DNA from: an uncultured Dehalococcoidia bacterium
GTDB taxonomy: Bacteria > Chloroflexota > Dehalococcoidia > Dehalococcoidales > UBA1222
Assembly: GCA_903844845.1 (NCBI GenBank)
Contig: CAIMVG010000021.1
Location: 70,992 to 134,991 of the forward strand
Length of the DNA stretch: 64,000 nucleotides
Reading direction: 5' to 3'
The notes under the pieces were generated by a model. It was given only the letters and a program-made list of their open reading frames with translations. It was not told the DNA's origin and did not search any database. The position numbers were made by a program, and so were the translations under genes. This document shows, piece by piece, positions 3,471 to 46,910 of this stretch (position 1 is the first letter of the stretch; the number at the start of each line of letters is the position of its first letter).

Positions 3471-3500
3471 TGGATCCCGGCTCGCGGGCCGGGATGACAC
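3471..3500 (-). repeat. Dispersed hairpin repeat (GTCAT-stem-loop-stem-ATCCAG family), reverse orientation
   Basis: TGGATCCCGGctcgcggGCCGGGATGACA matches copies at 15331, 17375, 33148, 43743 and 46791. Confidence 0.75.
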
Positions 3501-12601: not shown

Positions 12602-12694
12602 CTTTTTGCAAGTCGGTATAATTATTTTATGCATGGGGAAACGTGCATAAAAGGGCCGATTTGCCGGTTTCCGAGAGACGTAGAAACAAAAGAT

Positions 12695-13732
12695 ATGATC
12701 GAAGCGCGGCTCTACGAAAAACTCCCCGGGTCCATCGTCCGCTGCCACACGTGCCAGTGGCTCTGCAAGATACAGCCCGACAAGACCGGCGTGTGCAAGA
12801 TGTACAAGAACGAAGCCGGCACCCTTTTCAACCTGAATTACGCGCATACGTCATCCGTCGCGGTCGACCCGGTTGAAAAGAAGCCCCTCAACCACCTGTT
12901 TCCGGGCAGCTTGTGTTTTTCCCTGGGCGGCTGGGGCTGCAATTTCCACTGCATACACTGCCAGAACTGGGGCATCTCGTGCGTAAATATCCCGAACGGC
13001 GACCGCCGCCAGGCCGAGGTGCCCCCGCAAAAAGCCGTAGAAATGGCAGTTCACTACGGGTGCCAGGGCATCGCCTGGACCTACAACGAGCCGACCATGT
13101 GGTTCGAGTACACACTGGATTCGGCCAAACTGGCGCACGCTGCCGGGCTTTATTCCGTTTACGTCACCAACGGATACGCTACAGAAGAAGCCCTCGACCT
13201 CCTCGGGCCTTACCTGACGGCGTGGCGCGTGGACGTTAAAGGATTCAGCGACGGGTTTTACAGCAAACTGGCGCGTATCAGCCGCTGGCGCGGCATACTG
13301 GACGTCGCCAAACGCGCCAGGCATAAGTGGGGCATGCACGTCGAAGTGGTCACCAACGTTATACCGGGCATGAACGACGACGACGCCCAGCTAAGCGGTC
13401 TCGCAGGCTGGATAGCATCGGACCTTGGCGAACTGACGCCCTGGCATGTCACCCGTTTTCACCCTGATTACAACCTCCCGGATGTGCCCGCCACCCCCGT
13501 GGCCACAATCGAACGGGCGATATGCATCGGTAAAAAGGCGGGCCTCAAATTCATCTATGGGGGAAACATCCCCGGGCATTCGTCCGAGAGCACCGTCTGC
13601 TATAACTGCCGTAATCTCATCGTGGACCGGCAGGGTTATAAAACCGAAGTTATCGGCCTGGACGGCACGCACTGCAGGTTCTGCGGCGCGGACCTGAATT
13701 TCAGGATAGATATCAAGGGGGTTGCGAAATGA
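12695..13732 (+). CDS. amrS: AmmeMemoRadiSam system radical SAM enzyme
   Basis: Start taken at [11 protein letters not shown]-terminal C..C...C......G.C cluster, then radical [14 protein letters not shown]. Its stop overlaps the next start (ATGA at 13729-13732). Confidence 0.88.
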
Positions 13733-15054
13733 CAGCGATGATTCGAAAACCGACGGTGGCCGGATCTTTCTACCCCGGTTCGGCCAGGGAACTGGCGGCC
13801 ATGATAGAGACCATGGTGGACGACGGCGCGGCCAAAGCCCATGTGTTCGGGTTGGTCAGTCCGCATGCGGGCATCATCTATTCCGGGGCGGTGGCGGGGG
13901 CCGTTATCTCGCGAATCCGCATCACGGACACCGTCATCATCATGGGCCCGAACCACACGGGACTGGGCAAGCCCTTCGCTATAATGACGTCGGGCACCTG
14001 GGAAACGCCGCTGGGGAACGTCGATATCGACGGCGCACTCGCCTCTAAACTGCTCGCCGGTTCATCCTATCTCGCAGAAGATTACGACGCCCACTTACGG
14101 GAGCATTCCATCGAGGTCCAGCTGCCTTTCCTCCAGCATTTCAAAAAAGACGTCAAAATCGTGCCCATCGTGCTCTCGCACGCCGGCGGAGAAGTTTACA
14201 AGGAGATAGGTCAGGAGATAGCGGAGGTGTTGGCAGGGCTTGGCCGCGAAGTCGTCATCCTTGCTTCGAGCGACATGACGCATTACGAGCCGCGGAAAGA
14301 AGCCGAGCGCAAGGACAACTCGGCCATCGGCGCCATCCTGGACCTCGACGAAGACGCCCTCCTTGATCGCATCGCCGCCGAAAATATCACCATGTGCGGC
14401 TACGGGCCTGTGGCGGCCCTCATCTCCGCGGCCAAGGCCATGGGGGCCCAGAAGGCGGAACTGGTGAAATACCAGACCTCGGGGGAAACTTCAGGCGACT
14501 ATTCCAGCGTGGTCGGCTACGCGGGACTCATCATCCCCAGACCGGTCATGTCCCCGCTGGTGAAACTGGCGCACGAAGCCATCCGCGATTATATCGTGGA
14601 AGGCAGGGTCGTTTTGCCGCCCGAACCGCTCACTCCCGAGATGCAGGAAAAGGCCGGCGTGTTCGTTTCCATCCATGAGAACGGCGAACTGCGGGGGTGC
14701 ATCGGCACTTTCGAACCCGCCCGCCGCAACGTGGCGGAAGAGATAATCGTCAACGGTATCAGCGCGGCCACCCGCGACCCGCGTTTTTCGCCCATCGAGG
14801 AGCATGAACTCAACAAGCTGGAGATCAGCGTGGACGTCCTCACCGAACCCGAGGCCATTTCAGGCAGCGAACAGCTGGACCCCAAAAAATACGGCGCCAT
14901 CGTCCAGCGTGGGGCGCGGCGCGGCCTGCTCCTGCCTGACCTGGAGGGCGTAGACACCGCGGAGGAACAGATAGATATCTGCCGCCGCAAGGCGGACATC
15001 AGCCCGAATGAAAAGGTCCAGCTGTTCCGCTTCGAGGTGAAGCGGTACCACTAG
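13729..15054 (+). CDS. Fused AmmeMemoRadiSam system protein B (Memo-like) and protein A (AMMECR1)
   Basis: Residues 1 to about 268: R.P.VAGSFYP, SPHAG..YSG, MGPNH, H...EHS.EVQLPFL (Memo). From about nt 14540: GVFVS....G.LRGCIG, GLLLP (AMMECR1). Single uninterrupted 441-aa ORF. Confidence 0.85.
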
Positions 15055-15085: not shown

Positions 15086-15367
15086 CTGGATTGTCGGGTT
15101 TGGCCCGACAATGACTGCGGCTCGGAGGTTGGGTCATCCCGGCCCGTGCGCCGGGCCTCGGGATGTTCCCCGAGGTTCTCGCACTCGAGGCTCGGGTGTT
15201 CTTGTCCTCGAGCGTTGGCTCGAGGGATCCAGAATAACGGGTCCTTGGATGATTGTTGCGTCTGGCTTGTCGGATCACCCTCTTGACACCCGGGTACAAG
15301 CAAGCCCGACAATGCCGGGGCGCGAAGGCTGTGTCATCCCGGCCCGCGAGCCGGGATCCAGAATAAA
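15086..15367. repeat. Cluster of hairpin repeats (GTCAT...ATCCAG family, at least 4 units, mixed orientation and stem types)
   Basis: 15086-15115 CTGGAT|TGTCGGG..CCCGACA|ATGAC (reverse). 15133-15165 GTCAT|CCCGGC..GCCGGG. 15202-15237 GTC|CTCGAG..CTCGAG|GGATCCAGAATAA. 15331-15367 GTCAT|CCCGGC..GCCGGG|ATCCAGAATAA. Confidence 0.8.
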
Positions 15368-17374: not shown

Positions 17375-17404
17375 TGTCATCCCGGGCCGAGACCCGGGAT
17401 CCAT
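17375..17404 (+). repeat. Dispersed hairpin repeat (GTCAT|CCCGGGcc-gag-aCCCGGG|ATCCAT)
   Basis: GTGTCATCCCGGGCCGAGACCCGGGATCCAT lies directly downstream of rarA. Same family as 43743 and 46791. Confidence 0.8.
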
Positions 17405-17497
17405 TATATATCCTGGCATTAACAATGCTGAAAGCTGAGTGCTGACAGTTGCATCGGTTGACACTCACCCCCCGTCCGCATATACTTATAAGGTTGA

Positions 17498-17572
17498 CGC
17501 GGGGTGGAGCAGTGGCAGCTCGTCGGGCTCATAACCCGAAGGTCGTTCGTTCGAATCGAACCCCCGCTACCA
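17498..17572 (+). tRNA. tRNA-Met (anticodon CAU), initiator type, CCA encoded
   Basis: Manual cloverleaf: acceptor CGCGGGG/CCCCGCT, D arm GAGC-AGTGGCA-GCTC, anticodon arm TCGGG-CTCATAA-CCCGA, T arm GTTCG-TTCGAAT-CGAAC, then ACCA. Three consecutive G:C pairs close the anticodon loop and positions 1:72 are unpaired (C:U); both are initiator hallmarks. Confidence 0.9.
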
Positions 17573-17582
17573 AATAAATAAT

Positions 17583-17612
17583 AAAGCCCCCTGGTAATTC
17601 AGGGGGCTTTTC
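17583..17612. terminator. Bidirectional intrinsic terminator (AAAGCCCCCTG-loop-CAGGGGGCTTT)
   Basis: Perfect GC-rich stem with T-rich runs on both strands. Lies downstream of the tRNA (+) and of gene 17642..18193 (-). Confidence 0.75.
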
Positions 17613-17641
17613 TGTGTTTCTCGAATAGTCCGGTTTTTTGT

Positions 17642-18193
17642 TCAGTTCCATTTTATAGAGAACTCGGTGCAGTCGTTGCCTTTAGCTATCGATTTTAGCG
17701 TTTGCAGTTGGACATTCTTGCAACCGCAGATCTCCAGAGAGCGCGTCACCCAGCCGGAGATTCTCAATTCGATCAGGCGGTGCATTCCGGGGAATTTGGT
17801 TATCTCTAGTGTCACGCTATGGGATTGCTCGTTCGTTACTTTGATGACGCTGTCTTTGTAATAGGTGGCCATAATCTGGCTACCCTTGCCGATGATGAAA
17901 CCGGGCGAGCCTAATTTCACAAACAGCTTGTAAACACCCTGTAAGGAGGACTCAGAACTGAATCTTCCGATTTCCGTGGCGAAATCTTCTTTTCCACCAT
18001 AGAACATAGAGCTAATCTTCTGCATCGGCTCTACCATTGCCTCTGTGATCGGGTACCAGCTGCTGGCCATCGGGCTATTTATGATTGCCGCAGCCTGGGG
18101 CGAAAGGGATTTGAACCAATCATCATACCTGTTTGCGTGTTTGGCTCGAACGAAATCGGGGATTGATTTTACCGCGGTGCCTTTTACTTCCAT
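17642..18193 (-). CDS. Hypothetical protein, DUF2378/TIGR02265-like (recollection only)
   Basis: 183 aa. VKGTAVKS..DFVR.........W...L.......I.....SSWYP ... GW......E..G.K.V......S.A.G.D.C.F.I.W resembles the Myxococcus paralogous family pattern. Bracketed by tRNA-3'-end repeats. Confidence 0.6.
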   Translation of the reverse strand: MEVKGTAVKSIPDFVRAKHANRYDDWFKSLSPQAAAIINSPMASSWYPITEAMVEPMQKISSMFYGGKEDFATEIGRFSSESSLQGVYKLFVKLGSPGFIIGKGSQIMATYYKDSVIKVTNEQSHSVTLEITKFPGMHRLIELRISGWVTRSLEICGCKNVQLQTLKSIAKGNDCTEFSIKWN

Positions 18194-18411
18194 GATTTCT
18201 CCTTATGCAATTACCGATGCCATTCCGCTTAAAGCAGCTATATCCGGCAATTTTAGGGTTGTTGCCGGGGTAGAAGGAAGAACCGCTCGGCTACAAATCG
18301 CGGGCTTGACGGCTTATCCGATTGGCTATTCAGGCCAAAATGCCGATGTTGTTACGGAACGGATCGAAATGGAAACCGATATTTCGAATAAGTTCCGTTT
18401 GGACAGGTGAT

Positions 18412-18480
18412 GGTTCGAATCGAACCCCCGCTATCAATCAAACAATAAAGCCCCCTGATAATTCAGGGGGCTTCTTCTTT
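18412..18480 (+). repeat. Direct repeat of the tRNA-fMet 3' end (T-arm plus acceptor) plus terminator hairpin, copy 2
   Basis: GGTTCGAATCGAACCCCCGCTA is identical to tRNA positions 17547-17568. The following ~40 nt, including the hairpin AAAGCCCCCTGATAATTCAGGGGGCTT, differ from copy 1 at about 5 positions. Confidence 0.85.
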
Positions 18481-18508
18481 TCTTGACGATATTTGCCGAG
18501 ATTAAAAA

Positions 18509-19069
18509 TCAAACCCTCAACGAGCCGCGGAATCCCCTGGCGCTATAATAAGAGTCCGCGCCGTTGTGATACACGAAGACGTGGTCGTAGCGGCGATCGG
18601 CGAAGATAGCGCCTCCGAGTTTTCTGATTTCGGGGGGCGTTTTCAACCAGCTGGACGTTTTAGTATCGAAATTCCCGAGTTTCTGCAACTCGCGGTATTG
18701 TTCTTCAGTTAAAACCTCGATGCCCATAACAGCCGCCATCCCCATGGCGCTGTCTTTTGGTTTAGCTGCTTTCCTTGAATCCAGCGCATCGGGGTCGTAA
18801 CAGACATTTCTGCGGCCTTCGGGACTTTCCTTCGAACAATCATAAAAGATGTATCCGCCAGTCGTTTTATCATGACCCGCGACATCTGGTTTACCGCCGG
18901 TTCTCTCCATCTCATTGAGAGACCAAAGTTTTTCGGTATCAGCTTCAATTTTTATTTGCACTTTAACCCATTCAAGACCTTCATGGCGGTTCATGTTGGT
19001 ATTAAAGCGCTCTTTCAAGGCTTTTAATAATTCTTCGCGTTGTCCGGGTGACAGAGTTTTAGTCTGCAT
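18509..19069 (-). CDS. DUF4256 domain-containing protein
   Basis: 186 aa. L...QREELL..LK.RF..NM.RH.GLEW..VQ.K.E...EKLWSLNEMERTGG.PDV...D..TG.Y.FYDCS.ESP.GRR..CYD and a C-terminal RYDHVFVYHNGA.SYY.ARGFRGSL.V match my memory of this family. Confidence 0.75.
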   Translation of the reverse strand: MQTKTLSPGQREELLKALKERFNTNMNRHEGLEWVKVQIKIEADTEKLWSLNEMERTGGKPDVAGHDKTTGGYIFYDCSKESPEGRRNVCYDPDALDSRKAAKPKDSAMGMAAVMGIEVLTEEQYRELQKLGNFDTKTSSWLKTPPEIRKLGGAIFADRRYDHVFVYHNGADSYYSARGFRGSLRV

Positions 19070-19152
19070 TATGCCCTCCTCTCTATCGTAAAACTATCTT
19101 ATCATAACTTCCGAAGCTGTCTTGCAACCGCGATCATTAGTGAAAGTAACGA

Positions 19153-19215
19153 GCGAATCGAATCCCCGCTGTCCATCATATAAAAAGCCCCCTGATGATT
19201 CAGGGGGCTTTTGGT
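19153..19215 (+). repeat. Degenerate direct repeat of the tRNA-fMet 3' end plus terminator hairpin, copy 3
   Basis: GCGAATCGAATCCCCGCTGTCCATCATATAAAAAGCCCCCTGATGATTCAGGGGGCTTTT is colinear with copies 1 and 2 but more diverged (about three quarters identical by eye). Confidence 0.7.
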
Positions 19216-19237
19216 TTAACACTCCATTTATGTTTAT

Positions 19238-19636
19238 TCAGGCGGTTTTTAACTGCGCCCCGCAGCCGGCGCAGAAGGCTTTGCCCGGCGTTATTTTTGC
19301 TCCGCATCGAGGGCATGCCAAGGGAGTTGTTTGCCTGGGTTTCATCAGGGACAACAGCGCTTCACGGGCCGCATGCGCGTCCCCGCCTTTCAATTGGGTG
19401 CATTTTTCGAAGGCGTTGTAACTGGCGAACCTGTCGTGCAGTTGCGTTATTTTTGATTTGGGCAGTGCCTTCATCGCGTCCGCTTTGCGTATCGATTTCG
19501 AAACCCTGTTTAAAGACTGGTCCGCGAACTCTTTTTTTATGGTCTCACCCATGGAAGCCCTTTTTACCGATTTATCCATGGAATATTTGGCTTCCATCAG
19601 GTCATTCAGGATCTGTTGGTTCCCCTGGTTTTCCAT
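19238..19636 (-). CDS. Zinc-ribbon protein (coiled N-terminal part, C-terminal CPRCG...CAGCG ribbon)
   Basis: 132 aa. CPRCGAKITPGKAFCAGCGAQL is at the C-terminus. The start lies 3 nt downstream of the stop of the 806-aa gene, suggesting an operon. Confidence 0.65.
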   Translation of the reverse strand: MENQGNQQILNDLMEAKYSMDKSVKRASMGETIKKEFADQSLNRVSKSIRKADAMKALPKSKITQLHDRFASYNAFEKCTQLKGGDAHAAREALLSLMKPRQTTPLACPRCGAKITPGKAFCAGCGAQLKTA

Positions 19637-19638
19637 TT

Positions 19639-22059
19639 TTATCTGCCTCCCGCGTTGGCATCATAGTTGCCGCCGGTTTGTTGTGCGGCGCCTGACTGCG
19701 CCTGCATCTGCTGCATCTGTTCCTTCGTATAGGTAGCCGTTTTCCCGCCGGCTTCGGTGGTCGTGACCGACCCGTCTCTATGCAGGTCTATCCTGTTGCC
19801 TTGTTTATCTTGAACGTAACCGGAGCCATCGCTTTTGGTCTTCATCGTGGTGCCTTTCGAGTCCGTGATATCGGAGTTGCCCTGGGCGTCCCAAGAGCCT
19901 GCCCCGTCGGGGCCTTTCATCTCGCCTGAGCCGTCGCTCTTTATATCCTGGGTATTCCCCTTGTCGTCTTTGATGTGCATGTTCCCCTTGTCGTCAGTGG
20001 TCAGATCTAACGTTCCCTGTTCATCCTTGACGTGTGCATCGGTAACATTCCCGCCTTTTATATCGACCGAATTACCCTTTTCATCCTTGATATGCGCCTC
20101 GTTGCCGTCCTGGCTGATATCGGCGGTATTGCCCTTGTCGTCCTTGATGTGCATGGTGCCCTTATCGTCGGTGTTGAGGTCGACCGTTCCCTTGTCATCC
20201 TTGATATGTGCGCTGGTCACGTTGCCGTCCGAGTTGATATCGGCGGTATTGCCCTTGTCGTCCTTGATATGAATGTTGTCGGCATCGTCAGTGTTGACGT
20301 CCATCGTGCCGCCGTCTTCAGTTTTGATATGGCCGTTCATCTTGCCGTCGGCATCGGCATTGATGAAAGAGCCGTCATGGAACTTGGCCCTCAGTCCGTT
20401 CTCGTCGACCGTGATCTTATCGCCATCAGGAGTTTCGCCTTCGAAAGAGCCATCCTCCTTGATGGTTATTTTATTGCCCTGTTCGTCGGTCATGGAACCG
20501 CTCATATTCCCGTCTTTGTCGATTTTCATCGTGCCGCCGGGAGTGGAGATGCTGGCGGAACCATCCTTGTTCATCGTCATTACGGTACCGTCATATGTGG
20601 TTAAAGACCCTTCAGGGTAGCCCTCCTTCGGGCAATGCAGTGTACCGCCATATGGTGATTTTACGTCGATGCTGCCATCCTTATTGAGGGTGGATCCGCC
20701 TGTCCGGCCGTCCGGCAAGGTTATCTCTATTTCGCCGCTAGGTTTTGTGACCTGCAGCCCTGTTTCGGGGCTCCACTCTTTTTTCGTACCGTCGGGGTAA
20801 GACGTGTAACTACTGCCGTCGGGCCCCTCCGAATAGGTGGTGCCGTCGGGATAAATCGTGGTAACCACTTTGTCAGGAGTCCGGTTGATGATCGTCCCGT
20901 CCGGTTGCATCGTGTTGGTCGAGCCGTCCGGCAGGCGCTGGGATTGGAACTTGCCGTCAGCATCGTAGGTGCTTACGGTACCGTTCGGCTGGCGCACCGT
21001 GAGGGTTTTATCCGGGTTCGTTTCGACGGTGGTTCCGGGAGGGTCATCGGGGTTTGTCGAAGGCACCGGACCCTGCGGTACAGGGGGTTCTTCAGGCACA
21101 TCAGGCGGTTCTTCGGGGGGCGGCCCTATTTCGCCGGTCGCGATATCCTCTCCCGCACCTTCGGGTATTTCCGACTCGTCCCCGCCTTCGGCTGACTGCC
21201 CGACGATGACTCCGGCACTTACTCCGGCGACACCGCCCGAAAAGATACCTGCAAAGGTATGGTGAGCACTTTCAAAGTCGAATAGCTGCGACAAGAGAGA
21301 ATGCCCGGAAAATCCCGGGACATTGAGGTGGCTCAAGGCTCCCAAAGCTACCAGGGGAGCCAGAAGGCTCATCGCGCCGGATACCCTTCGGACCGGGGCC
21401 GGTTCAGCTTTGAGAAAGCGCGGCAGGACCCTGGCTACCAGCAGCAGGGCCAGCCCTATCCAGGCAAAATAATATCCCACGCCGAAGAAAGCTTTCAGGA
21501 TGTGCACCCCGGGCCTTTCGGTCAGGTAGCCCGTGATGGTCGGGGAAAAGGTGTAAAGAAGCAATCCTGAAAGGGCCAGCAGCCAGTGGTCTATCTTCTC
21601 GAGGTTCATGCTGCCCCAGTACATGAGTATGATGCTGATGAAAACGATGAAAACAAAACCCGGGAAAATATCGCCTGAGGGGCGGGAGAACAGATTTTTA
21701 GGTATGGCGAATACGATGCTTATGTATTTCGGAATCGTATTAGGCGTATGGCCGCTGGGAAGCGTCATGTAGTCGGCTATCGGTAAAAGGAAAGCTAAAG
21801 AGAAAAAGAGTTTGGCCACTACGGGGCATAGATCGTTAACCAGGTCCTGCCAGGGTTTGAGGTGGAAAGGCAGGCGGTTGAATAGTTTCAACACTACGAA
21901 CCCGGCCAGAGTGGCCACTAAAAGGCCGACGATGCCGCTGAGGAAATAGCCGACGATCAAGCCGGCGAGGATGGAGAGCAAGACAGGGAAACCTTCTTTG
22001 GTGAATAGCCATCTGGTGCGGGCTGCAAGTGACTGTTTGACGCCTGCATCTTTTTTCAT
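19639..22059 (-). CDS. Large membrane-anchored repeat protein (N-terminal multi-TM domain, Pro-rich linker, PDG/DDKGN repeat ectodomain)
   Basis: 806 aa. About 290 aa of hydrophobic helices, then the linker GPPPEEPPDVPEEPPVPQGPVP, then many short ..PDG(T/S).. beta-like repeats. Six or more HIKDDKGN(T/S).D units follow. Confidence 0.75.
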   Translation of the reverse strand: MKKDAGVKQSLAARTRWLFTKEGFPVLLSILAGLIVGYFLSGIVGLLVATLAGFVVLKLFNRLPFHLKPWQDLVNDLCPVVAKLFFSLAFLLPIADYMTLPSGHTPNTIPKYISIVFAIPKNLFSRPSGDIFPGFVFIVFISIILMYWGSMNLEKIDHWLLALSGLLLYTFSPTITGYLTERPGVHILKAFFGVGYYFAWIGLALLLVARVLPRFLKAEPAPVRRVSGAMSLLAPLVALGALSHLNVPGFSGHSLLSQLFDFESAHHTFAGIFSGGVAGVSAGVIVGQSAEGGDESEIPEGAGEDIATGEIGPPPEEPPDVPEEPPVPQGPVPSTNPDDPPGTTVETNPDKTLTVRQPNGTVSTYDADGKFQSQRLPDGSTNTMQPDGTIINRTPDKVVTTIYPDGTTYSEGPDGSSYTSYPDGTKKEWSPETGLQVTKPSGEIEITLPDGRTGGSTLNKDGSIDVKSPYGGTLHCPKEGYPEGSLTTYDGTVMTMNKDGSASISTPGGTMKIDKDGNMSGSMTDEQGNKITIKEDGSFEGETPDGDKITVDENGLRAKFHDGSFINADADGKMNGHIKTEDGGTMDVNTDDADNIHIKDDKGNTADINSDGNVTSAHIKDDKGTVDLNTDDKGTMHIKDDKGNTADISQDGNEAHIKDEKGNSVDIKGGNVTDAHVKDEQGTLDLTTDDKGNMHIKDDKGNTQDIKSDGSGEMKGPDGAGSWDAQGNSDITDSKGTTMKTKSDGSGYVQDKQGNRIDLHRDGSVTTTEAGGKTATYTKEQMQQMQAQSGAAQQTGGNYDANAGGR
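19930..20290 (-). repeat. Intragenic tandem repeats encoding HIKDDKGNTADI.(S/Q)DGN...-type units (about 19-21 codons each)
   Basis: Repeated DNA strings GCCCTTGTCGTCCTTGATGTGCAT / ATTGCCCTTGTCGTCCTTGATATG recur across this interval. The protein shows at least 6 consecutive units. Confidence 0.8.
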
Positions 22060-22213
22060 GTATCACCCCTCTAATACATCTCTATTACACCCCTTTACGC
22101 GCCAATTGTATTACAGGGGGAGGAGGGATTCAATAGAAAAATGCGTAAAATTTTATTGATTTTATAAAAACTGAGGTATGGCGCGTTTCACCCGGCACGC
22201 GGAGTACATAACG

Positions 22214-22240
22214 AAGCCCCCTGAATCTCAGGGGGCTTTT
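22214..22240. terminator. Terminator hairpin of the same AGCCCCCTG...CAGGGGGCT type
   Basis: GAAGCCCCCTGAATCTCAGGGGGCTTTTT lies downstream of the MscS gene (-). The T-run is on the plus strand. Confidence 0.6.
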
Positions 22241-22315
22241 TCTATCGTAACCGGGGATCTTGGGCGGGGGATTACCCGGCCTGTCGCTTTGCGGCATGCA
22301 CCACGTTCCCTGGGG

Positions 22316-23395
22316 CTAAGCCGGGTTGTCAGTTTGCCGTAAAAGGACTCTTTGCACAGGATATTCGATGGTTATGCCCTCGGCTTTGAAACGCCTGTGC
22401 AGCGCCTTTATAAACTCGTGCTTCAGGGCGAACTGGCTGATGCGGTCTACCGATTTCAATAACACGGTGAAGTTGATATTTGAGTCGCCGAATTCTTTGA
22501 AACGCACTTCTGGTTCGTGGTCCTTGGCCGCTTCAGGGCACCTGAGTGTTACTTCACGCGCCACATCGAGCGCCACCCTCTCAACTTCGTCGAGGTCGCT
22601 CTCGTAACTGACCCCGCAGGGCACGGCGAACAATTTAGACAACTCGGCTGCTTCAAAGTCGGTCACCACTGCGTCTGCCAGTTTAGAATTAGGCAGGACT
22701 ATCAGGTTGCCTTGCCAGTGGCGGATTTTTGTTGTGCGCCAGCCTATATCTTCGACCAGCCCCTCCTGGCCGCTGTCCAGCAAGATGTAATGGCCTTTTC
22801 GTATCACTGCGTCGGTGATGACATAAGTGCCTGCCAGGAAATTGCTGAGGGTGGGTTGCAGCGCGACGGCGACCGCCAGGCCGCCCACGCCGAGGCCGGC
22901 GATAAGCGGGGTTATTTTGATATTCAGGTTATCGAGTATGAGGACTAAAGCCATCCCGTACACAACCACGTTGCTCACGCGCTTGATGACAGGGATGAGC
23001 TTGTCGTCGATATCCGTATGGGTGCGGTTGGCCACCTCGCCGCCGTACCAGGTCAAGATGGCGCCGAGAAAACGATCGGCCGCCAGCGTTCCGATAGCGA
23101 TCGCGGCGATGATGCCGGCACGGTTGATGATGCCGAGATTGTCTTTTAATTCAGGTAGGCGTACCAGTGCCATCCATATACCGAGCGCAACCAGCACCAG
23201 GTAAACCGGGATATCCAGGGCTTTTACGATATGATCGTCAAGGTTGGTTTTGGTCCTTTTGGTCAGCAAAGAAAGGAACTTGCCGAAAAACAGGTGAGAG
23301 AATAAAGCCAGGACCAAAAACAGCAGGAAGATCCCTGCGGAAATTAACCATCGCTCCCACTCGGTTGTTATCGCTATCGCTGCTATCATATCCAA
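22316..23395 (-). CDS. Mechanosensitive ion channel family protein (MscS-like)
   Basis: 359 aa with N-terminal TM helices. The conserved pore and beta domain reads GLGVGGLAVA.ALQ..L.N...G...........GD.I......G.VE.IG.R.T.IR. Confidence 0.85.
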   Translation of the reverse strand: MDMIAAIAITTEWERWLISAGIFLLFLVLALFSHLFFGKFLSLLTKRTKTNLDDHIVKALDIPVYLVLVALGIWMALVRLPELKDNLGIINRAGIIAAIAIGTLAADRFLGAILTWYGGEVANRTHTDIDDKLIPVIKRVSNVVVYGMALVLILDNLNIKITPLIAGLGVGGLAVAVALQPTLSNFLAGTYVITDAVIRKGHYILLDSGQEGLVEDIGWRTTKIRHWQGNLIVLPNSKLADAVVTDFEAAELSKLFAVPCGVSYESDLDEVERVALDVAREVTLRCPEAAKDHEPEVRFKEFGDSNINFTVLLKSVDRISQFALKHEFIKALHRRFKAEGITIEYPVQRVLLRQTDNPA

Positions 23396-23445
23396 ATTCT
23401 CCCAGCCAAAGAGTATAGCATGCCGGTAAACGGCTGTGGAGGTAT

Positions 23446-24030
23446 CTACCGGTCAGGAATCACGTGTCTTAGTTCTTTAATCATATTCCGGAATACATCT
23501 TTGCCGTATGCGCAATCCACGTGTACAGCGAGTATTTCCCCTGACATGCTGAACGGGTACAGCCGGCATACCACCGGATTAGATTCATGTATCTCGCATC
23601 GATGTTCTGCCTGGTTGCGAAAGGGACAGGGGAGCGGGAGCCATCTCGTGGGTTCTCTCGTGGTCGGGCCCGGCTTGGCTTCTGCGCCCTTTGTCGTCAT
23701 TTGTAACAGCTTTTCTATGGGTATGCGTGATGCCGCGCTGATGGCATCCAGTTCTGCCTCGAACACTTCGACACCGGGGGAGTCGGGGCGGTTCGGGTTC
23801 GGGTTGCAGCATCTCCCGCAATTTTCGCACTTGCCTTCATCGAGGGCTTTGCGTACGTTCACCCGGGACCACAGTATACCAAGCGAGAGGGCGATATCGT
23901 CGGCTGCCGCCGCATCCATCAGCTGTTCGATCTCCTCGTCGGTCAAGTCGATGGTGCGTTTACCTTCAAGGTGCCCCAGGTTATGTTTTTTCAGGTCGAG
24001 CTTGACCCTGTTGTGAACGTGCTTATCCAA
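23446..24030 (-). CDS. YkgJ family cysteine-cluster protein (UPF0153)
   Basis: C.NCG.CC ... CPF......C.I.......C..YPF pattern. Confidence 0.75.
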   Translation of the reverse strand: MDKHVHNRVKLDLKKHNLGHLEGKRTIDLTDEEIEQLMDAAAADDIALSLGILWSRVNVRKALDEGKCENCGRCCNPNPNRPDSPGVEVFEAELDAISAASRIPIEKLLQMTTKGAEAKPGPTTREPTRWLPLPCPFRNQAEHRCEIHESNPVVCRLYPFSMSGEILAVHVDCAYGKDVFRNMIKELRHVIPDR

Positions 24031-24966
24031 CTAATACTCGCTTTCGGGGTCAACGATTACCTTTTTCCCATGTGTCATATTCGCCAGATAGACGCCGCCT
24101 ATTACCAAGATTGTACCCGCGCTCTGGGCGACCGAGTATCCCTCTTTCAGGATGATGACCCCTGCCAGTATCGCCACCAGCGTCGCCAGTCCCGCGAAAG
24201 AAGAGGTCCGGTTGGTGCCGATGGCAGTCAGCGCGAAATTATACAGCAGGAAAGCGATGATGGAACAGCCTATACCCAGGTAGAGGATGGCTATCAGAAA
24301 CTCGTGGTTGTTGAACGGGAGCATCACAAAGGCTTTAAGTGAATCGTTCCGCGCGCTTTCCAAGAGTGCGAGGACGGTAAAAACCGCCGCCCCCATCGCC
24401 ATCATGGCATAGGTCTTCTCCGCACTGGAAAACTGTGTTGCCCTTTGAGCGTAAACGGAATAAAGGCCGTAGGAAACCACGGCGATGAGCAGCATCAGGT
24501 ACCCGAGGGGGTTGAAGGTCGCGCTCAAACCCTTGGCTGCCAGGATTAAAATGATGCCTGCGGTGGTGAGGCCCACGCCTCCAACCTGGAGTTTCGTGGG
24601 CGGTTGTTTCAACATGAAAGTTGAGAGCAGGAGTGCCCCGACAGGGATGCAGGCGATGATAGCGCCGCTTTCGGAGGCGGATGTCAACTTGATGCCGACG
24701 GTTTCGCCGATGAAATAGGAACCCGGCACGAAGACAGCCAGTAATAATAATGCTTTCAGTGATTTATTACGAAAATCCAGCTTCACGATGCGCAAGAGCG
24801 CAAGCAGGCTCATCACCAGGAGGGCGAGCACGAACCGCCACGCGAGGAGGGCAAGCGGCGATACGGTATCCGTCACCGTTTTGGTAAACATGAAGCTGAA
24901 GCCCCAGAGGACCTCGCAGGCGAGGACGGAGAGGATGCCGAGGGGCGTTTTATCTTTTAGAGACAA
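24031..24966 (-). CDS. EamA/DMT family transporter
   Basis: 311 aa, ten hydrophobic segments in two similar halves, typical EamA repeat architecture. Confidence 0.82.
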   Translation of the reverse strand: MSLKDKTPLGILSVLACEVLWGFSFMFTKTVTDTVSPLALLAWRFVLALLVMSLLALLRIVKLDFRNKSLKALLLLAVFVPGSYFIGETVGIKLTSASESGAIIACIPVGALLLSTFMLKQPPTKLQVGGVGLTTAGIILILAAKGLSATFNPLGYLMLLIAVVSYGLYSVYAQRATQFSSAEKTYAMMAMGAAVFTVLALLESARNDSLKAFVMLPFNNHEFLIAILYLGIGCSIIAFLLYNFALTAIGTNRTSSFAGLATLVAILAGVIILKEGYSVAQSAGTILVIGGVYLANMTHGKKVIVDPESEY

Positions 24967-25064
24967 ATATTAATTTCCTTTTAACGAATTTAATACTGAG
25001 CAAATGAAAAATTGCTTTGCTTTCGCGGTATCGAGGGCAATTGAAAATATTCGGTGATAATAAG

Positions 25065-26651
25065 TTAAATGCTGAGTCTTATGTTTTTTAATTCTTCATA
25101 TTGTCTGAAACATTTTTCCATCTCTTCGGCAGGAACATTTAAATTCTCGATGAACCAATTGTCCACGGTTTTCATAGCTAGAGCTCTTTGGTCTTTCAGA
25201 ATTAGGTCGTCGACTCTTGATTCAATGCCGTAAGGAAAAACAAAATTTTCGCCTAAAAAGACTAATGCTTTCTTTGCCGCAGACGGTTCTATCTTTAGCA
25301 CCCCACTTCCGTATGTCTTAGAATATATTTCAAAAGAAAGTTGGGACAATGAGCTGAGCATTGAGAACCGTATCCACCGTAAACTGAGGTCAATATTTTC
25401 AGTGTTCTTTAGATAAACTCCATGGACGTTATTTGTGCTATATATTTTGTCCGGATTCAAAACGATGGTCGGAGTTTCTTTAATCATATAAGGGAGAAAT
25501 GCATCGGGTGATTTCTTTGGTGCAATGCAATACCAAACATTTCTATTTTTACAATGAAGCCTTTTGGCATATCCTTCAACTACGCCTCGTTGTATGTATT
25601 TAGTGAGAGATTCAGAAAGTGGAATATTTTCTGGTATCTCTAAAATATAATCTTGTATGTTAATGGCAGAAATATCTTTGCATTTATACATATCCCGGGC
25701 TTTTCGGACGATTGGTTTAATGAAAGAATCCGGTATCCCCAATTCGGTGGCTTGTATTTTGTTAATAATGAAGAAATTATTTGCGCCAGTTACGGTGCCG
25801 ATTAAAACGTCCGTACATTTACCTAATGGCTGGAATTTGAGGAGATTTCTGAGTTTCTCCAAGCTCTTTGATTCTTTTCTAAATACCTGGAGATTTTCAA
25901 TTGTTGAATTTCCAACTGGAATGGTGCGCCACTTGACATCTCTGTCGGGAATCCCGCGTGAATTGCCGATTTGTATTTTATGAGACCGCGTTCCATATTG
26001 GTCTGCAAAGAGAAGGAGGATTCTTTCTTGGTTTGTATCAAACAATTGTTGTCCTATAACCGCAATTCTTATCTCTCCAAAATTCGCAAAAAGATATTCT
26101 TTGACGGGCCGAGAATATTCTGAATATAAGAACGACCATGGCAGAATTGCACCAAGACTGCCGTTTATCCTGATGTATTTAAGAGAATGTAATATAAAAT
26201 ATGCCCATAAATCACAGGTTTTTCTCACACATGTGGTGCTACTAACGAGCGTGTTTAAATATTTCTTTGTCTCTTTGGTTAATGAATGATGTCGAATATA
26301 TGGCGGATTCATAATGATTGCATCAAATTGGCTTGGTAGGTTGCAGTTCTTCAGATAAAAAAAATCTGTATTAGTTAAATTCCCAATCTCAACGGTTCGG
26401 TTGAGTAAATCCATAATTTTCTTTGGAGGTAGGTTGACGTCACATCCGAAAAGTTGCGTACTCGGATTCGGAGTTCCCAGTGATTCGAAGCGCTTGTGTG
26501 CGGCAAATAACAAGGCTCCATGCCCAAAACAGGGGTCAAATACCGTCGCATGCTCGTTTTTAATAGTATTGTATACCAGGTAGTCAGCTAAGGCTTCAGG
26601 TGTGAAATGAATTCCATCCTTTTTACGAGGGAGAGATTCAGACGTGGTCAT
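25065..26651 (-). CDS. N6-adenine DNA methyltransferase (gamma class, Eco57I/TaqI-like catalytic domain plus C-terminal target-recognition region)
   Basis: Motif I VFDPCFGHGALL, motif IV IIMNPPYIRHH, and a C-terminal GSGVLKIEPS-type segment. Start taken at the ATG at 26651 (MTTSESL), which forms a TAATG overlap with the upstream stop. An alternative start is at 26681. Confidence 0.85.
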   Translation of the reverse strand: MTTSESLPRKKDGIHFTPEALADYLVYNTIKNEHATVFDPCFGHGALLFAAHKRFESLGTPNPSTQLFGCDVNLPPKKIMDLLNRTVEIGNLTNTDFFYLKNCNLPSQFDAIIMNPPYIRHHSLTKETKKYLNTLVSSTTCVRKTCDLWAYFILHSLKYIRINGSLGAILPWSFLYSEYSRPVKEYLFANFGEIRIAVIGQQLFDTNQERILLLFADQYGTRSHKIQIGNSRGIPDRDVKWRTIPVGNSTIENLQVFRKESKSLEKLRNLLKFQPLGKCTDVLIGTVTGANNFFIINKIQATELGIPDSFIKPIVRKARDMYKCKDISAINIQDYILEIPENIPLSESLTKYIQRGVVEGYAKRLHCKNRNVWYCIAPKKSPDAFLPYMIKETPTIVLNPDKIYSTNNVHGVYLKNTENIDLSLRWIRFSMLSSLSQLSFEIYSKTYGSGVLKIEPSAAKKALVFLGENFVFPYGIESRVDDLILKDQRALAMKTVDNWFIENLNVPAEEMEKCFRQYEELKNIRLSI

Positions 26652-27430
26652 TATTGATATGCAATCTCGTGCAGACAGCACTTATCTTTTGCCATCACAG
26701 CATTAACCAAACTTACATAATTCACCCACCAAACTTTTTGGCTTTTGGACACCAAATTGTTCCAAGATCGCTCTTCAACCATGTCATTTAGCGGTGTATC
26801 AAATTCTCTTAAAGCCAAATCCAAAACTAATAAATAATCCATAGGAAAATATTGGATCCGCGGGTTTTCTAGAAATGGCTCAAGGCAATAATGCGAATTC
26901 ATGCCATTAGGTATGGAATTTGGAGGATTCCCACCGTATTGAAGATGGGAAGGGGGTATTTTTTGGTTGCCCGGTTGGAGATCAAAATGGAATTTTCTAA
27001 CAATCCTCTTTCCGGTTTTTTGTGAAACTCGGCAGCAAGAATCTCCGGGAGTAATAAGCCCCTCTGTTTGGAACGTGACCCAAAACGCGAACGAAGACCG
27101 AGTTATAGATTTCTTATCGCCTGTGATTACGCCTCCAATAATAATTGTGGGGTGATGTTGATTTAGCTTTTTGTTCAATACGGGAATTTCGATTAGTGGA
27201 ATATTGCAATGGAAATTGTTGCCTGTTTCTGACTTCAATTTAGCATAGGCTACGGCAATAGAAGCAGCAGGGCTCCCGGTGATTGTAGCGTATCGTTCTT
27301 CATTGATACTTCGAAACTCAGCAGAGCATTGTAAGTAATTTAGAGATTCCAACAGTTGGGTTTGGGCTTCATCACGATCCACTTCGCATGTCTCAGTTTT
27401 GTTGGTCAGTTTATTAGTTAAATCTGGCAT
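26651..27430 (-). CDS. Orphan 259-aa protein (candidate effector or specificity component of the island operon)
   Basis: Uninterrupted ORF, AT-rich like its neighbours, coupled on both sides. I recognise no family motif. Confidence 0.65.
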   Translation of the reverse strand: MPDLTNKLTNKTETCEVDRDEAQTQLLESLNYLQCSAEFRSINEERYATITGSPAASIAVAYAKLKSETGNNFHCNIPLIEIPVLNKKLNQHHPTIIIGGVITGDKKSITRSSFAFWVTFQTEGLITPGDSCCRVSQKTGKRIVRKFHFDLQPGNQKIPPSHLQYGGNPPNSIPNGMNSHYCLEPFLENPRIQYFPMDYLLVLDLALREFDTPLNDMVEERSWNNLVSKSQKVWWVNYVSLVNAVMAKDKCCLHEIAYQ

Positions 27431-27438
27431 ATTCGAGC

Positions 27439-28473
27439 CTAATTTTTTCTGAACGACCTAAATCCGTCAAAGTAGAGGTATCGTTGTTTCGAAATATCAG
27501 GTTGACTGCATCTTATGTGGACCGGAGATTCCTTTTTGTTATCGAGGTCCATCCCGACGGTCTCCGGGAATGGCTCGGAACAGACCGCACACCTACTGCG
27601 TTGTTCCGCTTGGATATCGAATATTTTGTTGGAAATGGACCAAGGTTCATCTGAATCCACGTCAGCGGCTCCAGGTTCCGAAAACAGTAATTGAGTTACT
27701 TCATTGACCCACCATAAAGATTTATGAGTACCATTAAAAACACCCGAATATTTGGCTTTGCTAAATATTTCGGCGATTTTTTCGAAACCCACCTCATTAA
27801 CACCCAATAAAGTTGAGATTCGCAAACTGTCCGAGAGAATGCCTGGCACAACCATCAATTGTCTTCGGACCCATCGAGAAAATGAAATTGTATTCCCCTC
27901 GCCTTCAGAGTCGGTGTCGGGAGTTAACCCATTTCTTAAATTATCTGGTAAAGTTAAAGATATTAACTTTTCACAAGAGTCTGGTACGCGCAACAAATCA
28001 ATTAAAGCTTTCACGTCACCTCTCGGGGTGTCGGCTCTTATTGTTTTGTAATCCAATGCATCGTAATAAAGGGATTGTTCATTTTTTTGGTATCTCTGCA
28101 GTTCTTTAACAGTTAAAATTCTATCAAATACACTTTCGGTTGCTTGTGACCACTTCGAAAGGTCTGCGTATCCGTTTTTATTTTCTTGGTTTGTCACTAG
28201 ATAAATTGGGTGTTCCGGGAATTTTTCTCTTATTAAAGCCCCTGGAGTGAGCCCGTGATCTTGGAAAAAAACATTTTCGGAATTTGGTTTCTGATTCAGA
28301 TATAAATCAACCAAGAAAATGTCCGGGAGATCCGATCCCTTCATCGTCGTTAGAGATGATTTGAATCGAGTTGGATGTGTCCATACTATTCTCAACAGGT
28401 CTGAGCTTAAATTCTGGGATTCCTCAGTTTGGTCTTGATCATCAATCCAAAAAGCCAGTAATTTGGTGCTCAT
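27439..28473 (-). CDS. REC-like (response-regulator receiver) protein with a possible HTH and a C-terminal Cys/His cluster
   Basis: D11 D12 (FWIDDQD), D56 (FLVDLYL), T94 (YLVTNQ) and K107 (DLSKW) reproduce the spacing of the CheY D12/D13/D57/T87/K109 quintet. LRISTLLGVNEVGFEKIAE is HTH-like. CAVC....(x21)..HIRC lies near the C-terminus. Confidence 0.7.
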   Translation of the reverse strand: MSTKLLAFWIDDQDQTEESQNLSSDLLRIVWTHPTRFKSSLTTMKGSDLPDIFLVDLYLNQKPNSENVFFQDHGLTPGALIREKFPEHPIYLVTNQENKNGYADLSKWSQATESVFDRILTVKELQRYQKNEQSLYYDALDYKTIRADTPRGDVKALIDLLRVPDSCEKLISLTLPDNLRNGLTPDTDSEGEGNTISFSRWVRRQLMVVPGILSDSLRISTLLGVNEVGFEKIAEIFSKAKYSGVFNGTHKSLWWVNEVTQLLFSEPGAADVDSDEPWSISNKIFDIQAEQRSRCAVCSEPFPETVGMDLDNKKESPVHIRCSQPDISKQRYLYFDGFRSFRKN

Positions 28474-30743: not shown

Positions 30744-31023
30744 GGAAAAAGCTCTCCCAGCAAAGATAACAAGTCTGAGAATGAATATATTCCAAATTGG
30801 GGTTGCTTTCAAGCATGTTGTTTTTAGGGACTAAAATCTAAAAGAAGAATTGGAATAACGATGTTTGATTTTCACAAATCGTACTTTTTGGTACATTATT
30901 AAACATCGCGAGTCTAGCGGTGTAGTTTATTGAATAGAAATTCTGACGGTTAAAGACTTTAGTTGGGTCGCTCAAATGCAGGATTTCGTCTCGTTGTAAA
31001 ATCCTTACAGGAGGGAAATACAA

Positions 31024-31515
31024 ATGCAAAGGATAACCCCGAATCTGTGGTTCGATAACCGGGCAGAAGAAGCTGCCAATTTCTACGTCTCCATCTTCCC
31101 CAATTCCAAAATCAACGGGATCTCTCATTACGGGGAAGGAAACGCGAAGGTGTCGGGTATGAAAAAGGGCACCGTGATGACCGTCACTTTCGAACTCGAC
31201 GGCCAGCAGATGATGGCCCTCAACGGCGGCCCGGTTTTCAAGTTCAACGAAGCCGTCTCCCTGGTCGTCAATTGCATGACCCAGGACGAGATCGACCATT
31301 ACTGGGATTCCCTGTCGCAGGACGGCGACCCGAAAGCGCAGATATGCGGATGGCTGAAGGACAAATATGGAGTGTCCTGGCAGGTGGTCCCCGTCGCTCT
31401 TGGCGAGATGATGCAGGATGAAGACGCTAAGAAAACGGATAGGGTCATGGCTGCTTTGTTGAAGATGAAAAAAATCGATATCGCCACCCTGAAGAAAGCC
31501 TATCTCGGGAAGTGA
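31024..31515 (+). CDS. VOC family protein (PhnB / 3-demethylubiquinone-9 3-methyltransferase-domain type)
   Basis: MQ.ITP.LWFD..AEEA..FY.SIF.NS.I............G.V.TV.F.L.GQ....LNGGP.F.F.EA.S....C..Q.E.D..W..L...G....CGWLKDK.G.SWQ..P. Confidence 0.82.
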   Translation: MQRITPNLWFDNRAEEAANFYVSIFPNSKINGISHYGEGNAKVSGMKKGTVMTVTFELDGQQMMALNGGPVFKFNEAVSLVVNCMTQDEIDHYWDSLSQDGDPKAQICGWLKDKYGVSWQVVPVALGEMMQDEDAKKTDRVMAALLKMKKIDIATLKKAYLGK

Positions 31516-31537
31516 CGGGTTACTCCATCCCCTAAAT

Positions 31538-31577
31538 AATAGAGCCCCCGAATCAAAATTCGGGGGCTCTATTATTT
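31538..31577 (+). terminator. Long perfect hairpin downstream of the VOC gene
   Basis: AATAGAGCCCCCGAAT-caaa-ATTCGGGGGCTCTATT is a 16-bp perfect stem followed by ATTTG. Confidence 0.65.
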
Positions 31578-32974: not shown

Positions 32975-33350
32975 GGCCGGACCCAAGGCCCGGGATGACA
33001 CCCCCCATTGTTGTCATCATCTGACTTGCCTGTAACCGGGTGTCAGGAGGGTGATTCGACAATCCATCGTTTTAAGGGCGAAGTTACTGTATAGTTGCGC
33101 ACTAACGGAGGGGAATGGTACGAGAATACCTGGCCGCCTACGGATTCTGGATCCCGGGTCACGGCCCGGGATGACCACCCCCATCGTTGTCATTGTCGGA
33201 CTTGCTCCGACAATCCAGGCGTAAGCCCAGGGTTCGAGGCCCGGGTCTACCGCCCGAGGATGCCCACCCCCATCGGTGTCATTGTCGGACTTGTTCCGAC
33301 AATCCAGATGTAATCACCGGGTTTGATGCCCGGGCGCGGCCAGGGATGCT
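32975..33350. repeat. Hairpin-repeat cluster including an 89-bp-period alternating array (A-B-A-B-A)
   Basis: CACCCCCATCG(T/G)TGTCAT|TGTCGGACTTG(C/T)TCCGACA|ATCCAG occurs at 33176 and 33265. It is interleaved with CCCGGG-type hairpins ending in GGATG at 33148-33175, 33229-33264 and 33315-33350. A degenerate copy lies at 32975-33065. Confidence 0.85.
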
Positions 33351-43610: not shown

Positions 43611-43910
43611 TGTCATGCCGGAGCGCAAATCCGGCATCCATTGCCACTGCCTTGCCGAACGGGGCGGGACCATGTCGATGTTGGCGATGTTAGCCCATCT
43701 CCCGGTTTAACCGCAGTATGTTCTTCGACATCACATTTTTTCTTGTCATCCCGGGCCGCGACCCGGGATCCAAAACAAATTCCTCGTTTCGTTCATGTTC
43801 CTATTTCCCCCGGGTTGTTCCACGAGGTTCTTGTCCTCGAGGGATCCAGAACTTGGATGCGGGGTGGTTTCTCCTCTCGTTTGTCATGCGCCGCCCGCTG
43901 GCGTCATTAG
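43611..43910 (+). repeat. Cluster of four forward-oriented hairpin repeats with different stems
   Basis: 43611 GTCAT|GCCGGA..TCCGGC|ATCCAT. 43743 GTCAT|CCCGGG..CCCGGG|ATCCAA. 43820 CCACGAGG..CCTCGAGG|GATCCAGAA. 43881 GTCAT|GCGCC..GGCGTC|ATTAG. Confidence 0.8.
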
Positions 43911-46790: not shown

Positions 46791-46910
46791 GTCATCCCGG
46801 GCCGTGACCCGGGATCCATTTCCCAAACTTTTGGTTGACCGGATTGTGTCATACACGAGCCGCAAATCAATATTTCATTCTCGAGCCGCAGACTCGGGAA
46901 TCCAGAATGA
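46791..46910 (+). repeat. Two hairpin repeats of the GTCAT...ATCCAG family
   Basis: 46791 GTCAT|CCCGGGcc-gtg-aCCCGGG|ATCCAT. 46874 TTCAT|TCTCGAG..CTCGGGA|ATCCAGAAT. Confidence 0.8.

Follow-up and report, generated by a model that had tools for sequence, protein, structure and literature searches.

What is the origin of the genes that follow an initiator transfer RNA (tRNA) gene when the 3′ end of that tRNA recurs several times among them? This question is raised by a 64-kb stretch of DNA (64,000 nucleotides of contig CAIMVG010000021.1, assembly GCA_903844845.1, hereafter the window) from an uncultured Dehalococcoidia bacterium. A model working from the letters and a list of open reading frames (hereafter the sequence-only reading) had pointed out an initiator tRNA-Met gene followed by extra copies of its 3′ end plus terminator, and had proposed serial insertions at this tRNA. 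Our analysis makes it likely that the 14 kb located 3′ of the tRNA gene are accreted, horizontally acquired islets, inserted one after another into the 3′ part of the gene by site-specific recombination. The locus is a classic scar of repeated insertion at a tRNA site, and it is unusual only in that its islets are tiny and carry no integrase.

The putative integration target, which would also represent the regenerated attL side (att, attachment site), is an initiator-type tRNA-Met(CAT) gene at 17498-17572 on the plus strand (ARAGORN; Rfam RF00005, 60.8 bits). It is the sole tRNA gene of the window, and no transfer-messenger RNA gene was found there by ARAGORN or Rfam. The initiator hallmarks can be read directly from the sequence and comprise the C1/U72 mismatch, A11:U24 and three G-C pairs (GGG/CCC) closing the anticodon stem. 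A sigma-70-like promoter (TTGACA-17-TATACT) is predicted at 17458-17486 on the same strand from a consensus match at 11 of 12 positions.

Downstream of this gene we found a recurring module that consists of tRNA positions 53-73 (the core), an A-rich spacer and a strong hairpin with a T run. The 21-nt core, GTTCGAATCGAACCCCCGCTA, occurs exactly twice in the window, at 17549 and 18413, with 0 occurrences expected by chance. Copy 1 (17549-17610, plus strand) belongs to the tRNA gene itself and contains the core (17549-17569), CCA, the A-rich spacer and a hairpin at 17583-17610, with a folding energy of −22.8 kcal/mol on the plus strand and −21.3 kcal/mol on the minus strand. Copy 2 (18413-18475, plus strand) is a displaced tRNA 3′ fragment with a core at 18413-18433 that matches in 21/21 positions, a spacer and a hairpin at 18448-18475; copies 1 and 2 are 92% identical across 61 nt. 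This agrees well with the sequence-only reading, which had placed the second copy at 18412-18480 with a 21/21 tRNA match and about 90% identity over about 60 nt. The shared tRNA block had been overestimated at about 26 nt, and is actually 21 nt long; preceding the core, the tRNA has CGTTCG instead of GGTTCG. Copy 3 (19151-19212, plus strand), previously described as a degraded copy at 19153-19215, combines a decayed core (19151-19171, 17/21), a spacer and an intact hairpin (19183-19212). Copy 4 (22205-22241, plus strand), seen earlier as a fourth hairpin lacking a tRNA fragment at 22214-22240, comprises the spacer ATAACGAAG and the hairpin, and retains the trailing TTTTTCTAT found in other copies. 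No tRNA part was detectable in copy 4 by shuffle-tested alignment, this part having decayed past recognition. The array turned out to be larger than had been noted, as a fifth copy is present at 31518-31577 on the plus strand. Copy 5 contains a very decayed core remnant (GGTTACTCCATCCCC), a spacer and a hairpin (31534-31577) with perfect arms of 20 nt and a folding energy of −35.8 kcal/mol. It was recognised solely via synteny with a sister species (L109:18040-18102) and marks the outer end of the accreted region.

All module copies align in register, and their decay rises with distance from the tRNA gene: the core matches in 21/21 positions in copy 2 and 17/21 in copy 3, is unrecognisable in copy 4 and mostly deleted in copy 5. 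The hairpin AGCCCCCTG-N5-6-CAGGGGGCT was found at four sites in the 64 kb (17585, 18449, 19186 and 22215) and at no others, against an expectation of 0. In a survey of GC-rich perfect hairpins in the window, the remaining terminator-like stems were unrelated to the module stem, and the module hairpins are restricted to 17.5-31.6 kb. The four same-stem hairpins (copies 1-4) fold with −21 to −24 kcal/mol on either strand (−21 to −36 kcal/mol when copy 5 is included) and have A and T tracts on their two sides. Because of these two features they look like bidirectional terminators, and termination is the role that we predict for them. The loops fall into different types, with (G/A)T(A/G)ATT common to the three newest hairpins, AG(A/G)AA at the tRNA of the sister species and in two further groups of contigs described below (L123 and L004), and another type again in the two oldest copies of the window.

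Repeats of this kind might also be decayed, full-length tRNA genes duplicated in tandem, or chance look-alike terminators. Tandem initiator tRNA genes occur in some bacteria, and GC-rich hairpins with a T run behind them are frequent. However, the window contains one tRNA gene, and no homology to tRNA positions 1-52 was observed 5′ of the copy-2 core, where 1985 of 2000 shuffles scored equally well. Likewise, no tRNA 5′ halves were found in the window with ARAGORN, Rfam or alignment. The sequence-only reading had suggested a check for decayed full-length tRNA copies, and the result speaks for insertion. In addition, the genes between the copies are foreign and lie on the opposite strand, and neither the hairpin nor the 21-mer is expected by chance, the other hairpins of the window being unrelated. 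These tests refute tandem duplication and chance resemblance, to which we assign next to no probability. The displaced cores have a sharp 5′ limit at tRNA position 53 in the T-loop, both in copy 2 of the window and in copy 2 of L004 and copy 3 of L109. A possible remnant of a tRNA anticodon loop and stem, TCATAACttCCGAAG, was found at 19101-19115 on the plus strand by local alignment (a weak match, as 3 of 2000 shuffles score as well), and from this motif copy 3 may formerly have been a longer tRNA 3′ half. No conserved motif was evident in alignments of the islet side of the displaced cores.

The segments between the copies are the islets. Islet M1 (17573-18412, GC 0.474) contains one minus-strand gene at 17642-18193, encoding a protein of 183 amino acids (aa), and its 219-nt 5′ region. 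Islet M2 (18434-19150, GC 0.464) also carries one minus-strand gene (18509-19069), which encodes a DUF4256 protein (Pfam E=6.5e-88). The single minus-strand gene in each inter-repeat segment and the DUF4256 label had both been recognised from the sequence alone; the DUF2378-like label given to the 183-aa gene could not be upheld. No Pfam or NCBIfam match was found for this protein even at E≤5 or E≤1, and it has no PADLOC match. Outside the window species and two contigs of another species (L123 and L124), its homologues share at most 56% identity with it, and the few with a source name are Bacteroidales or Patescibacteria metagenome-assembled genomes (MAGs). We also considered a defence role for the cassette genes, and rejected it as none has a PADLOC match. 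The spread of DUF4256 proved uninformative as a clue to cassette mobility, the family being huge and highly conserved (thousands of members at ~80% identity); in another Chloroflexi MAG the DUF4256 gene is located in an ordinary context without tRNA fragments. In the window species M2 always occurs in the order M1-M2-M3. Noncoding space within M1 and M2 amounts to 80-220 nt, and no pseudogene fragments or other gene debris were found in these two islets. Their base composition is foreign, with a GC content of 0.46-0.47 compared to 0.60 (0.597) 5′ of the tRNA gene, where ordinary core genes are located, namely RarA and genes for a membrane protein, a Memo-AMMECR1 fusion and a radical SAM protein.

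Islet M3 (19172-22204, minus strand, GC 0.536) encodes a Zn-ribbon protein (19238-19636) and an internally repetitive protein of 806 aa (19639-22059). The internal repeats of the latter have periods of ~57-120 nt and give a weak Tcp10_C-type repeat match. In the contigs of some strains (L091 and L133), gene calling splits the coding sequence into a 113-aa piece and a truncated open reading frame (ORF), suggesting repeat-number or frameshift variation. Beyond copy 4, the oldest block (22242-31517) contains genes for MscS (22316-23395), a CxxCxxCC protein (23446-24030) and EamA (24031-24966), a low-GC restriction-modification (R-M) island (24967-30837) and a PF06983 gene (31024-31515, plus strand). 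The accreted region had been suggested to extend to about 22.2 kb. That segment does belong to the block, but the extent was too modest, as the block runs to ~31.58 kb.

To compare the locus with relatives, we considered the GTDB genomes with a related RarA (L008-L087, at most 72% identity) as a source of empty sites; the best genome match to the RarA/MgsA gene just 5′ of the locus is a Dehalococcoidales MAG, at 72%. None of them has the initiator tRNA gene (tRNA-fMet) beside RarA. Closer relatives were found through metagenome contigs, among them a sister species represented by four contigs (L109-L112) with 95% aa identity in RarA. Here the order of genes is RarA, tRNA, hairpin, a 700-aa protein, two small zinc-finger proteins and a decayed copy (GCTACCA, spacer and hairpin), followed by CxxCxxCC, EamA, a 282-aa protein, the PF06983 protein and a good copy (GTTCCAATCGAATCCCCAGCTACCA, spacer and hairpin). 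The decayed copy, at L109:14805-14866, is the positional counterpart of copy 4 and retains GCTACCA, spacer and hairpin, and the good copy, at L109:18040-18102, is that of copy 5 and retains GTTCCAATCGAATCCCCAGCTACCA, spacer and hairpin. The CxxCxxCC, EamA and PF06983 genes are common to both species and are located between copies 2 and 3 of the sister species. Since copies 4 and 5 and some intervening genes are common to both species, they are older than the species split. In contrast, a tblastn search of the sister species found no counterpart of the 183-aa, DUF4256, Zn-ribbon, 806-aa, MscS or R-M genes. After the split, the slots closest to the tRNA gene were filled differently in the two species. 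At the outer end, a cation-efflux gene follows copy 5 in the window and is located ~1.5 kb further out in the sister species. The MscS gene, between the copy-4 hairpin and the CxxCxxCC gene, is missing at the sister-species counterpart and has no module copy of its own, so that gene flux in the region is not all via tRNA-end repeats.

Many metagenomes hold contigs that are near-identical to the window. Among 17 contigs of the same species, all at 98-100% identity, 16 have the same array. The exception is L004 (the same as L094, found in two samples), which has no runs of N at the join. This contig is 99% identical to the window up to the copy-2 core and diverges right after 18433, where CCA leads into another spacer and a hairpin whose loop differs, with an unrelated gene on the minus strand beyond them. 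The spacer and hairpin of this copy 2 are 88% identical over 86 nt to the tRNA-proximal module of the sister species. Apparent insertions of 100 nt between RarA and the tRNA gene in L090 and L093 were rejected as they are runs of N, that is, scaffold gaps. Ancestral synteny, which the sequence-only reading had named as the second point to be checked besides full-length tRNA copies, was not observed: the sister species goes from the tRNA and its hairpin straight to other genes, and L004 diverges right after the copy-2 core. Both checks support serial insertion at the tRNA.

Parallel events were observed in more distant relatives with RarA beside the tRNA gene, which show either the tRNA gene directly followed by its own hairpin, as expected for the empty site that had been proposed as a comparison, or other one-gene inserts. 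In L100 and L105 the tRNA gene is joined to its own hairpin without interruption, and these contigs are the empty-site match to L103. In L103 an intact tRNA gene is followed by a 531-nt insert with one minus-strand ORF of 132 aa, which has perfect 34-nt tRNA-end repeats on either side and displaces the hairpin that directly adjoins the tRNA gene in L100 and L105. L105/L119 and L106 contain one extra displaced fragment each, with its own hairpin. The fragment of L106 (4374-4417) has a T stem (CAGAC/GTCTG, still complementary) and an acceptor strand unlike those of the resident tRNA-fMet, and seems to derive from another tRNA or from the initiator tRNA of another host rather than from local decay. 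Five short contigs (L098, L102, L104, L107 and L108) contain orphan tRNA 3′ halves that start in the anticodon loop, and two of these five adjoin genes for transposases of insertion sequence (IS) families (IS3, ISXO2-like) or MazEF. The M1 cassette is also present in a further species, of which L123 and L124 are independent assemblies; its distal neighbour is another one there, so that M1 is seen beside three distal neighbours (in the window, L004 and L123). Compared to the window, the M1 gene of L123/L124 is 86% identical at the nucleotide level and its 5′ noncoding region 53%. The tRNA fragment of L123/L124 is perfect over 35 nt, or 38 nt through CCA, and the hairpin behind it is of the type seen in the sister species. 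The copy-2 core is preserved in 21/21 positions in these two contigs despite the ~50% identity of the adjacent noncoding DNA, which can be read as independent integrations, as selection or as gene conversion.

The arrangement is what site-specific integration into a tRNA gene would produce, since an island brings a new 3′ end and the old one is moved to its far side (PMC4383910). The graded decay, the foreign GC content, the lack of M1, M2 and M3 in the sister species, the L004 breakpoint at the core, the fragment starts in the T-loop or anticodon loop and the parallel events in relatives all fit the following course of events. Each incoming DNA would bring an attachment site (attP) that copies the tRNA 3′ end, usually together with spacer and terminator. 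Integration would rebuild the tRNA gene from the incoming copy, while the former 3′ end, its terminator and everything behind would be pushed outward as a displaced fragment. The stack would then have grown at the tRNA, with the newest islets nearest to the gene (M1, then M2, then M3) and the oldest displaced fragments, copies 4 and 5, outermost and most decayed. The repeat reaches past the tRNA into the terminator, which suggests that the donors were close relatives with this same tRNA context, or else that the inserted DNAs form a single family with a common attP. The hairpins would have remained intact because they terminate transcription in both directions, the minus-strand islet genes converging on the tRNA; plausibly, they end the islet transcripts and shield the tRNA gene from convergent transcription. 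The agent is expected to be a tyrosine or serine recombinase, and since the islets have none of their own, the enzyme would be supplied from elsewhere, now or formerly, which makes them resemble cis-mobilisable elements.

Several results weigh against this explanation. The absence of an integrase had already been noted from the sequence, and indeed no integrase, serine recombinase or transposase domains (Phage_integrase, Resolvase, Recombinase, rve) were found in the substantial ORFs of the whole window. The same domains were absent from the arrays of L103, L105/L119, L106 and L109, and no integrase was present at the loci of the more distant relatives, including the contigs with orphan tRNA halves. 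As the window and the related arrays lack a recombinase, the enzyme is one that we infer. The core 21-mer was not found in viral contigs (IMG/VR). Six 16-mer matches in IMG/VR were considered as viral attP, and turned out to lie in coding sequence or in other tRNAs encoded on the opposite strand. Neither an excised circle nor an attP was seen. The array is nearly fixed in the species (16/17), so that present mobility is unproven; this argues against frequent current movement. Furthermore, the perfect copy-2 core could result from gene conversion by the tRNA gene. Finally, L004 contains M1 without M2 or M3 behind it, a poor fit to all insertions entering at the tRNA. Its layout needs an independent insertion of M1, an insertion into the displaced copy or a later recombination between copies.

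How the islets arrived and became so small can be explained in three partly overlapping ways: as remnants of larger islands, as small units moved in trans, like cis-mobilisable elements or cassettes, or as products of later shuffling between modules. If larger islands or prophages had inserted, their integrase and many genes would later have been deleted, leaving one or a few genes between att scars in a now inert array. This is the usual fate of tRNA-linked islands; moreover, decay can be seen in the older copies, the array has become fixed in the species, and the partial tRNA copies of relatives adjoin IS3 and ISXO2-like transposase genes and MazEF, which are typical island debris. Nevertheless, such trimming would have had to stop at exactly one intact gene in several independent events, which is unlikely, and would have left no pseudogene fragments and just 80-220 nt of noncoding space in M1 and M2. 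The insert of L103 likewise measures only 531 nt between perfect repeats. We regard an origin from larger islands as possible but somewhat doubtful. The opposite idea is dedicated capture of one-gene circles of 0.5-0.9 kb, which would be moved at the tRNA gene or its displaced copies by a recombinase encoded elsewhere, as in an integron whose integrase is not linked to the array. Capture would account for at least four compact units of independent origin, each with one gene and no recombinase debris (M1, M2, the L103 insert and cassette 1 of L105), and for the perfect 34-nt repeats of L103, which indicate a recent insert that was never trimmed from a larger element. The three different distal neighbours of M1 and the perfect copy-2 core amid ~50% diverged surroundings are also in line with capture. 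On the other hand, recombinase and circular form were not found, the array is almost invariant in the species, and M3 and the oldest block are multi-gene. In addition, the 5′ limits of the fragments vary (positions 53, 46, 39 and the anticodon loop), which points to several unrelated integrases rather than one system. Capture by a dedicated system is unlikely in our opinion.

A third possibility is that no site-specific enzyme is active now, and that one or two ancient integrations were followed by exchange among the 60-nt modules through homologous recombination and gene conversion, also with DNA acquired from related strains, which shuffled and replaced the segments in between. The near identity of modules over 21-60 nt would allow this, a perfect core is what gene conversion would produce, and in L004 the breakpoint falls within a module whose spacer and hairpin resemble those next to the sister-species tRNA (88% over 86 nt). 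However, shuffling can explain neither how unrelated foreign genes first arrived between the copies nor why the fragments begin so sharply at the T-loop or the anticodon loop, both recognised attP positions of tRNA-integrating islands. Moreover, the L103 insert has its own junctions and no second module. We consider this explanation very improbable. Returning to repeated site-specific insertion at the tRNA, the compact one-gene inserts, including that of L103 with its perfect 34-nt repeats, lean towards mobilisation in trans over remnants, and the three contexts of M1 also point to movement in trans.

The closest precedent, of the same class, is found in Dehalococcoides, where genomic islands are stacked in tandem at ssrA, with ~20-bp repeats of the ssrA 3′ end and insertion at the T-loop (McMurdie et al. 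2011, PMC3146451). Sixteen of these islands have a serine-recombinase module and 15 do not, and the latter have been proposed to be cis-mobilisable (PMC3146451). The array described here is similarly stacked 3′ of a small RNA gene, with ~20-nt 3′-end repeats, insertion at the T-loop and members without an integrase. In contrast to the ssrA islands, its target is tRNA-fMet, no DsiB-type serine recombinase is present, next to attL or elsewhere in the locus, and the locus contains no integration module. The units are also far smaller, with one gene in 0.7-0.9 kb for the two newest, and the repeat usually runs beyond the end of the gene into the terminator. A regenerated tRNA gene and a displaced fragment also mark the island ends in Islander (Hudson et al. 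2015, PMC4383910; Williams 2002, cited there), which tabulates classes of attP with a site in the T-stem region or centred on the anticodon. Our locus shares with these islands the regenerated tRNA, the displaced 3′ fragments in direct orientation (18413, 19151 and ~31518, all on the plus strand) and the foreign composition. Its fragments and those of relatives start at recognised attP positions (T-stem/T-loop region or anticodon loop), and the segment is absent from close relatives (L109-L112, and L100/L105 for the L103 insert). Under the Islander rule, which requires an integrase, tandem arrays of three or more were found just 4 times in 2168 genomes (PMC4383910). The window locus differs in having no integrase and at least four displaced fragments, and because an integrase is required, standard island finders would overlook it.

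Two further comparisons can be made. Cis-mobilisable elements (CIMEs) and the accretion of integrative elements are known from Streptococcus (named in PMC3146451 and PMC5704250). M1 and M2 resemble CIMEs in that module copies bound them as att sites and each contains one gene that does not encode a recombinase. CIMEs are, however, defined beside a functional integrative and conjugative element (ICE) or integrative and mobilisable element (IME) whose integrase moves them, and no such partner was seen here. Integron arrays are similar in consisting of compact, mostly single-gene units that end in a hairpin-containing repeat and vary in content among strains or species. In contrast to integrons, the locus has no intI, attI or Pc (the cassette promoter), and it is anchored by a tRNA gene. 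Instead of an attC site (no Rfam attC match at the gathering threshold), the repeat combines a tRNA 3′ end with an ordinary intrinsic terminator, whose GC-rich stem is perfect and followed by a T run. The genes point toward the anchor, and they seem to be preceded by upstream regions of their own. It is improbable, but would be of interest, that the tRNA-fMet locus is the landing pad of a cassette system of one-gene circles of 0.5-0.9 kb, each with its own promoter and one tRNA-end att, and an unlinked recombinase. If the one-gene units did move by themselves, they would represent a minimal cassette system distinct from integrons, and if an unlinked enzyme moved them, the locus would be an integron-like array on an essential tRNA gene. 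In this uncultured Dehalococcoidia lineage, the initiator tRNA gene is a recurrent entry point for foreign genes, where the stack gives the order of gene acquisition in the host genome. The locus represents a clear, well-documented case of tandem accretion with integrase-less islets, parallel to the dehalogenase-carrying ssrA islands of Dehalococcoides.

Within the oldest block, the R-M island (24967-30837; 5.9 kb, GC 0.403) is located between the EamA and PF06983 genes and is absent from the sister species. It encodes an Eco57I-type type II methylase (25065-26681), two proteins without a family match (26651-27430 and 27439-28473) and a protein of 780 aa that contains two GHKL ATPase domains and weakly matches restriction enzymes (28470-30812). 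No direct repeats flanking this island were found. A 153-aa ORF at 30838-31299 (minus strand) overlaps the PF06983 gene on the opposite strand and is similar solely to the antisense of the sister-species PF06983 gene; it is probably a shadow ORF and not a gene.

On the other side of the tRNA gene, the radical SAM gene (12629-13732), partner of the Memo-AMMECR1 fusion (13729-15054), is uncalled in several contigs of the same species (L004, L090 and L096). In the same-species contigs without this call the Memo gene encodes 417 aa rather than 441, which may reflect a strain-level deletion or a scaffold gap. A 25-nt palindromic repeat, GTCATCCCGG(G/C)-N6-(G/C)CCGGGAT, occurs in seven copies in the window (3474-3498, 15133-15157, 15333-15357, 17376-17400, 33151-33175, 43745-43769 and 46791-46815), with 0 expected. 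Every copy is intergenic-looking, and one is located just 5′ of the tRNA promoter. This dispersed palindrome looks like a family of the host genome similar to repetitive extragenic palindromes (REP) or miniature inverted-repeat transposable elements (MITE). Further downstream, three tandem paralogous genes of the nitroreductase family, encoding 243-249 aa each, are located at 46967-49190 on the minus strand.

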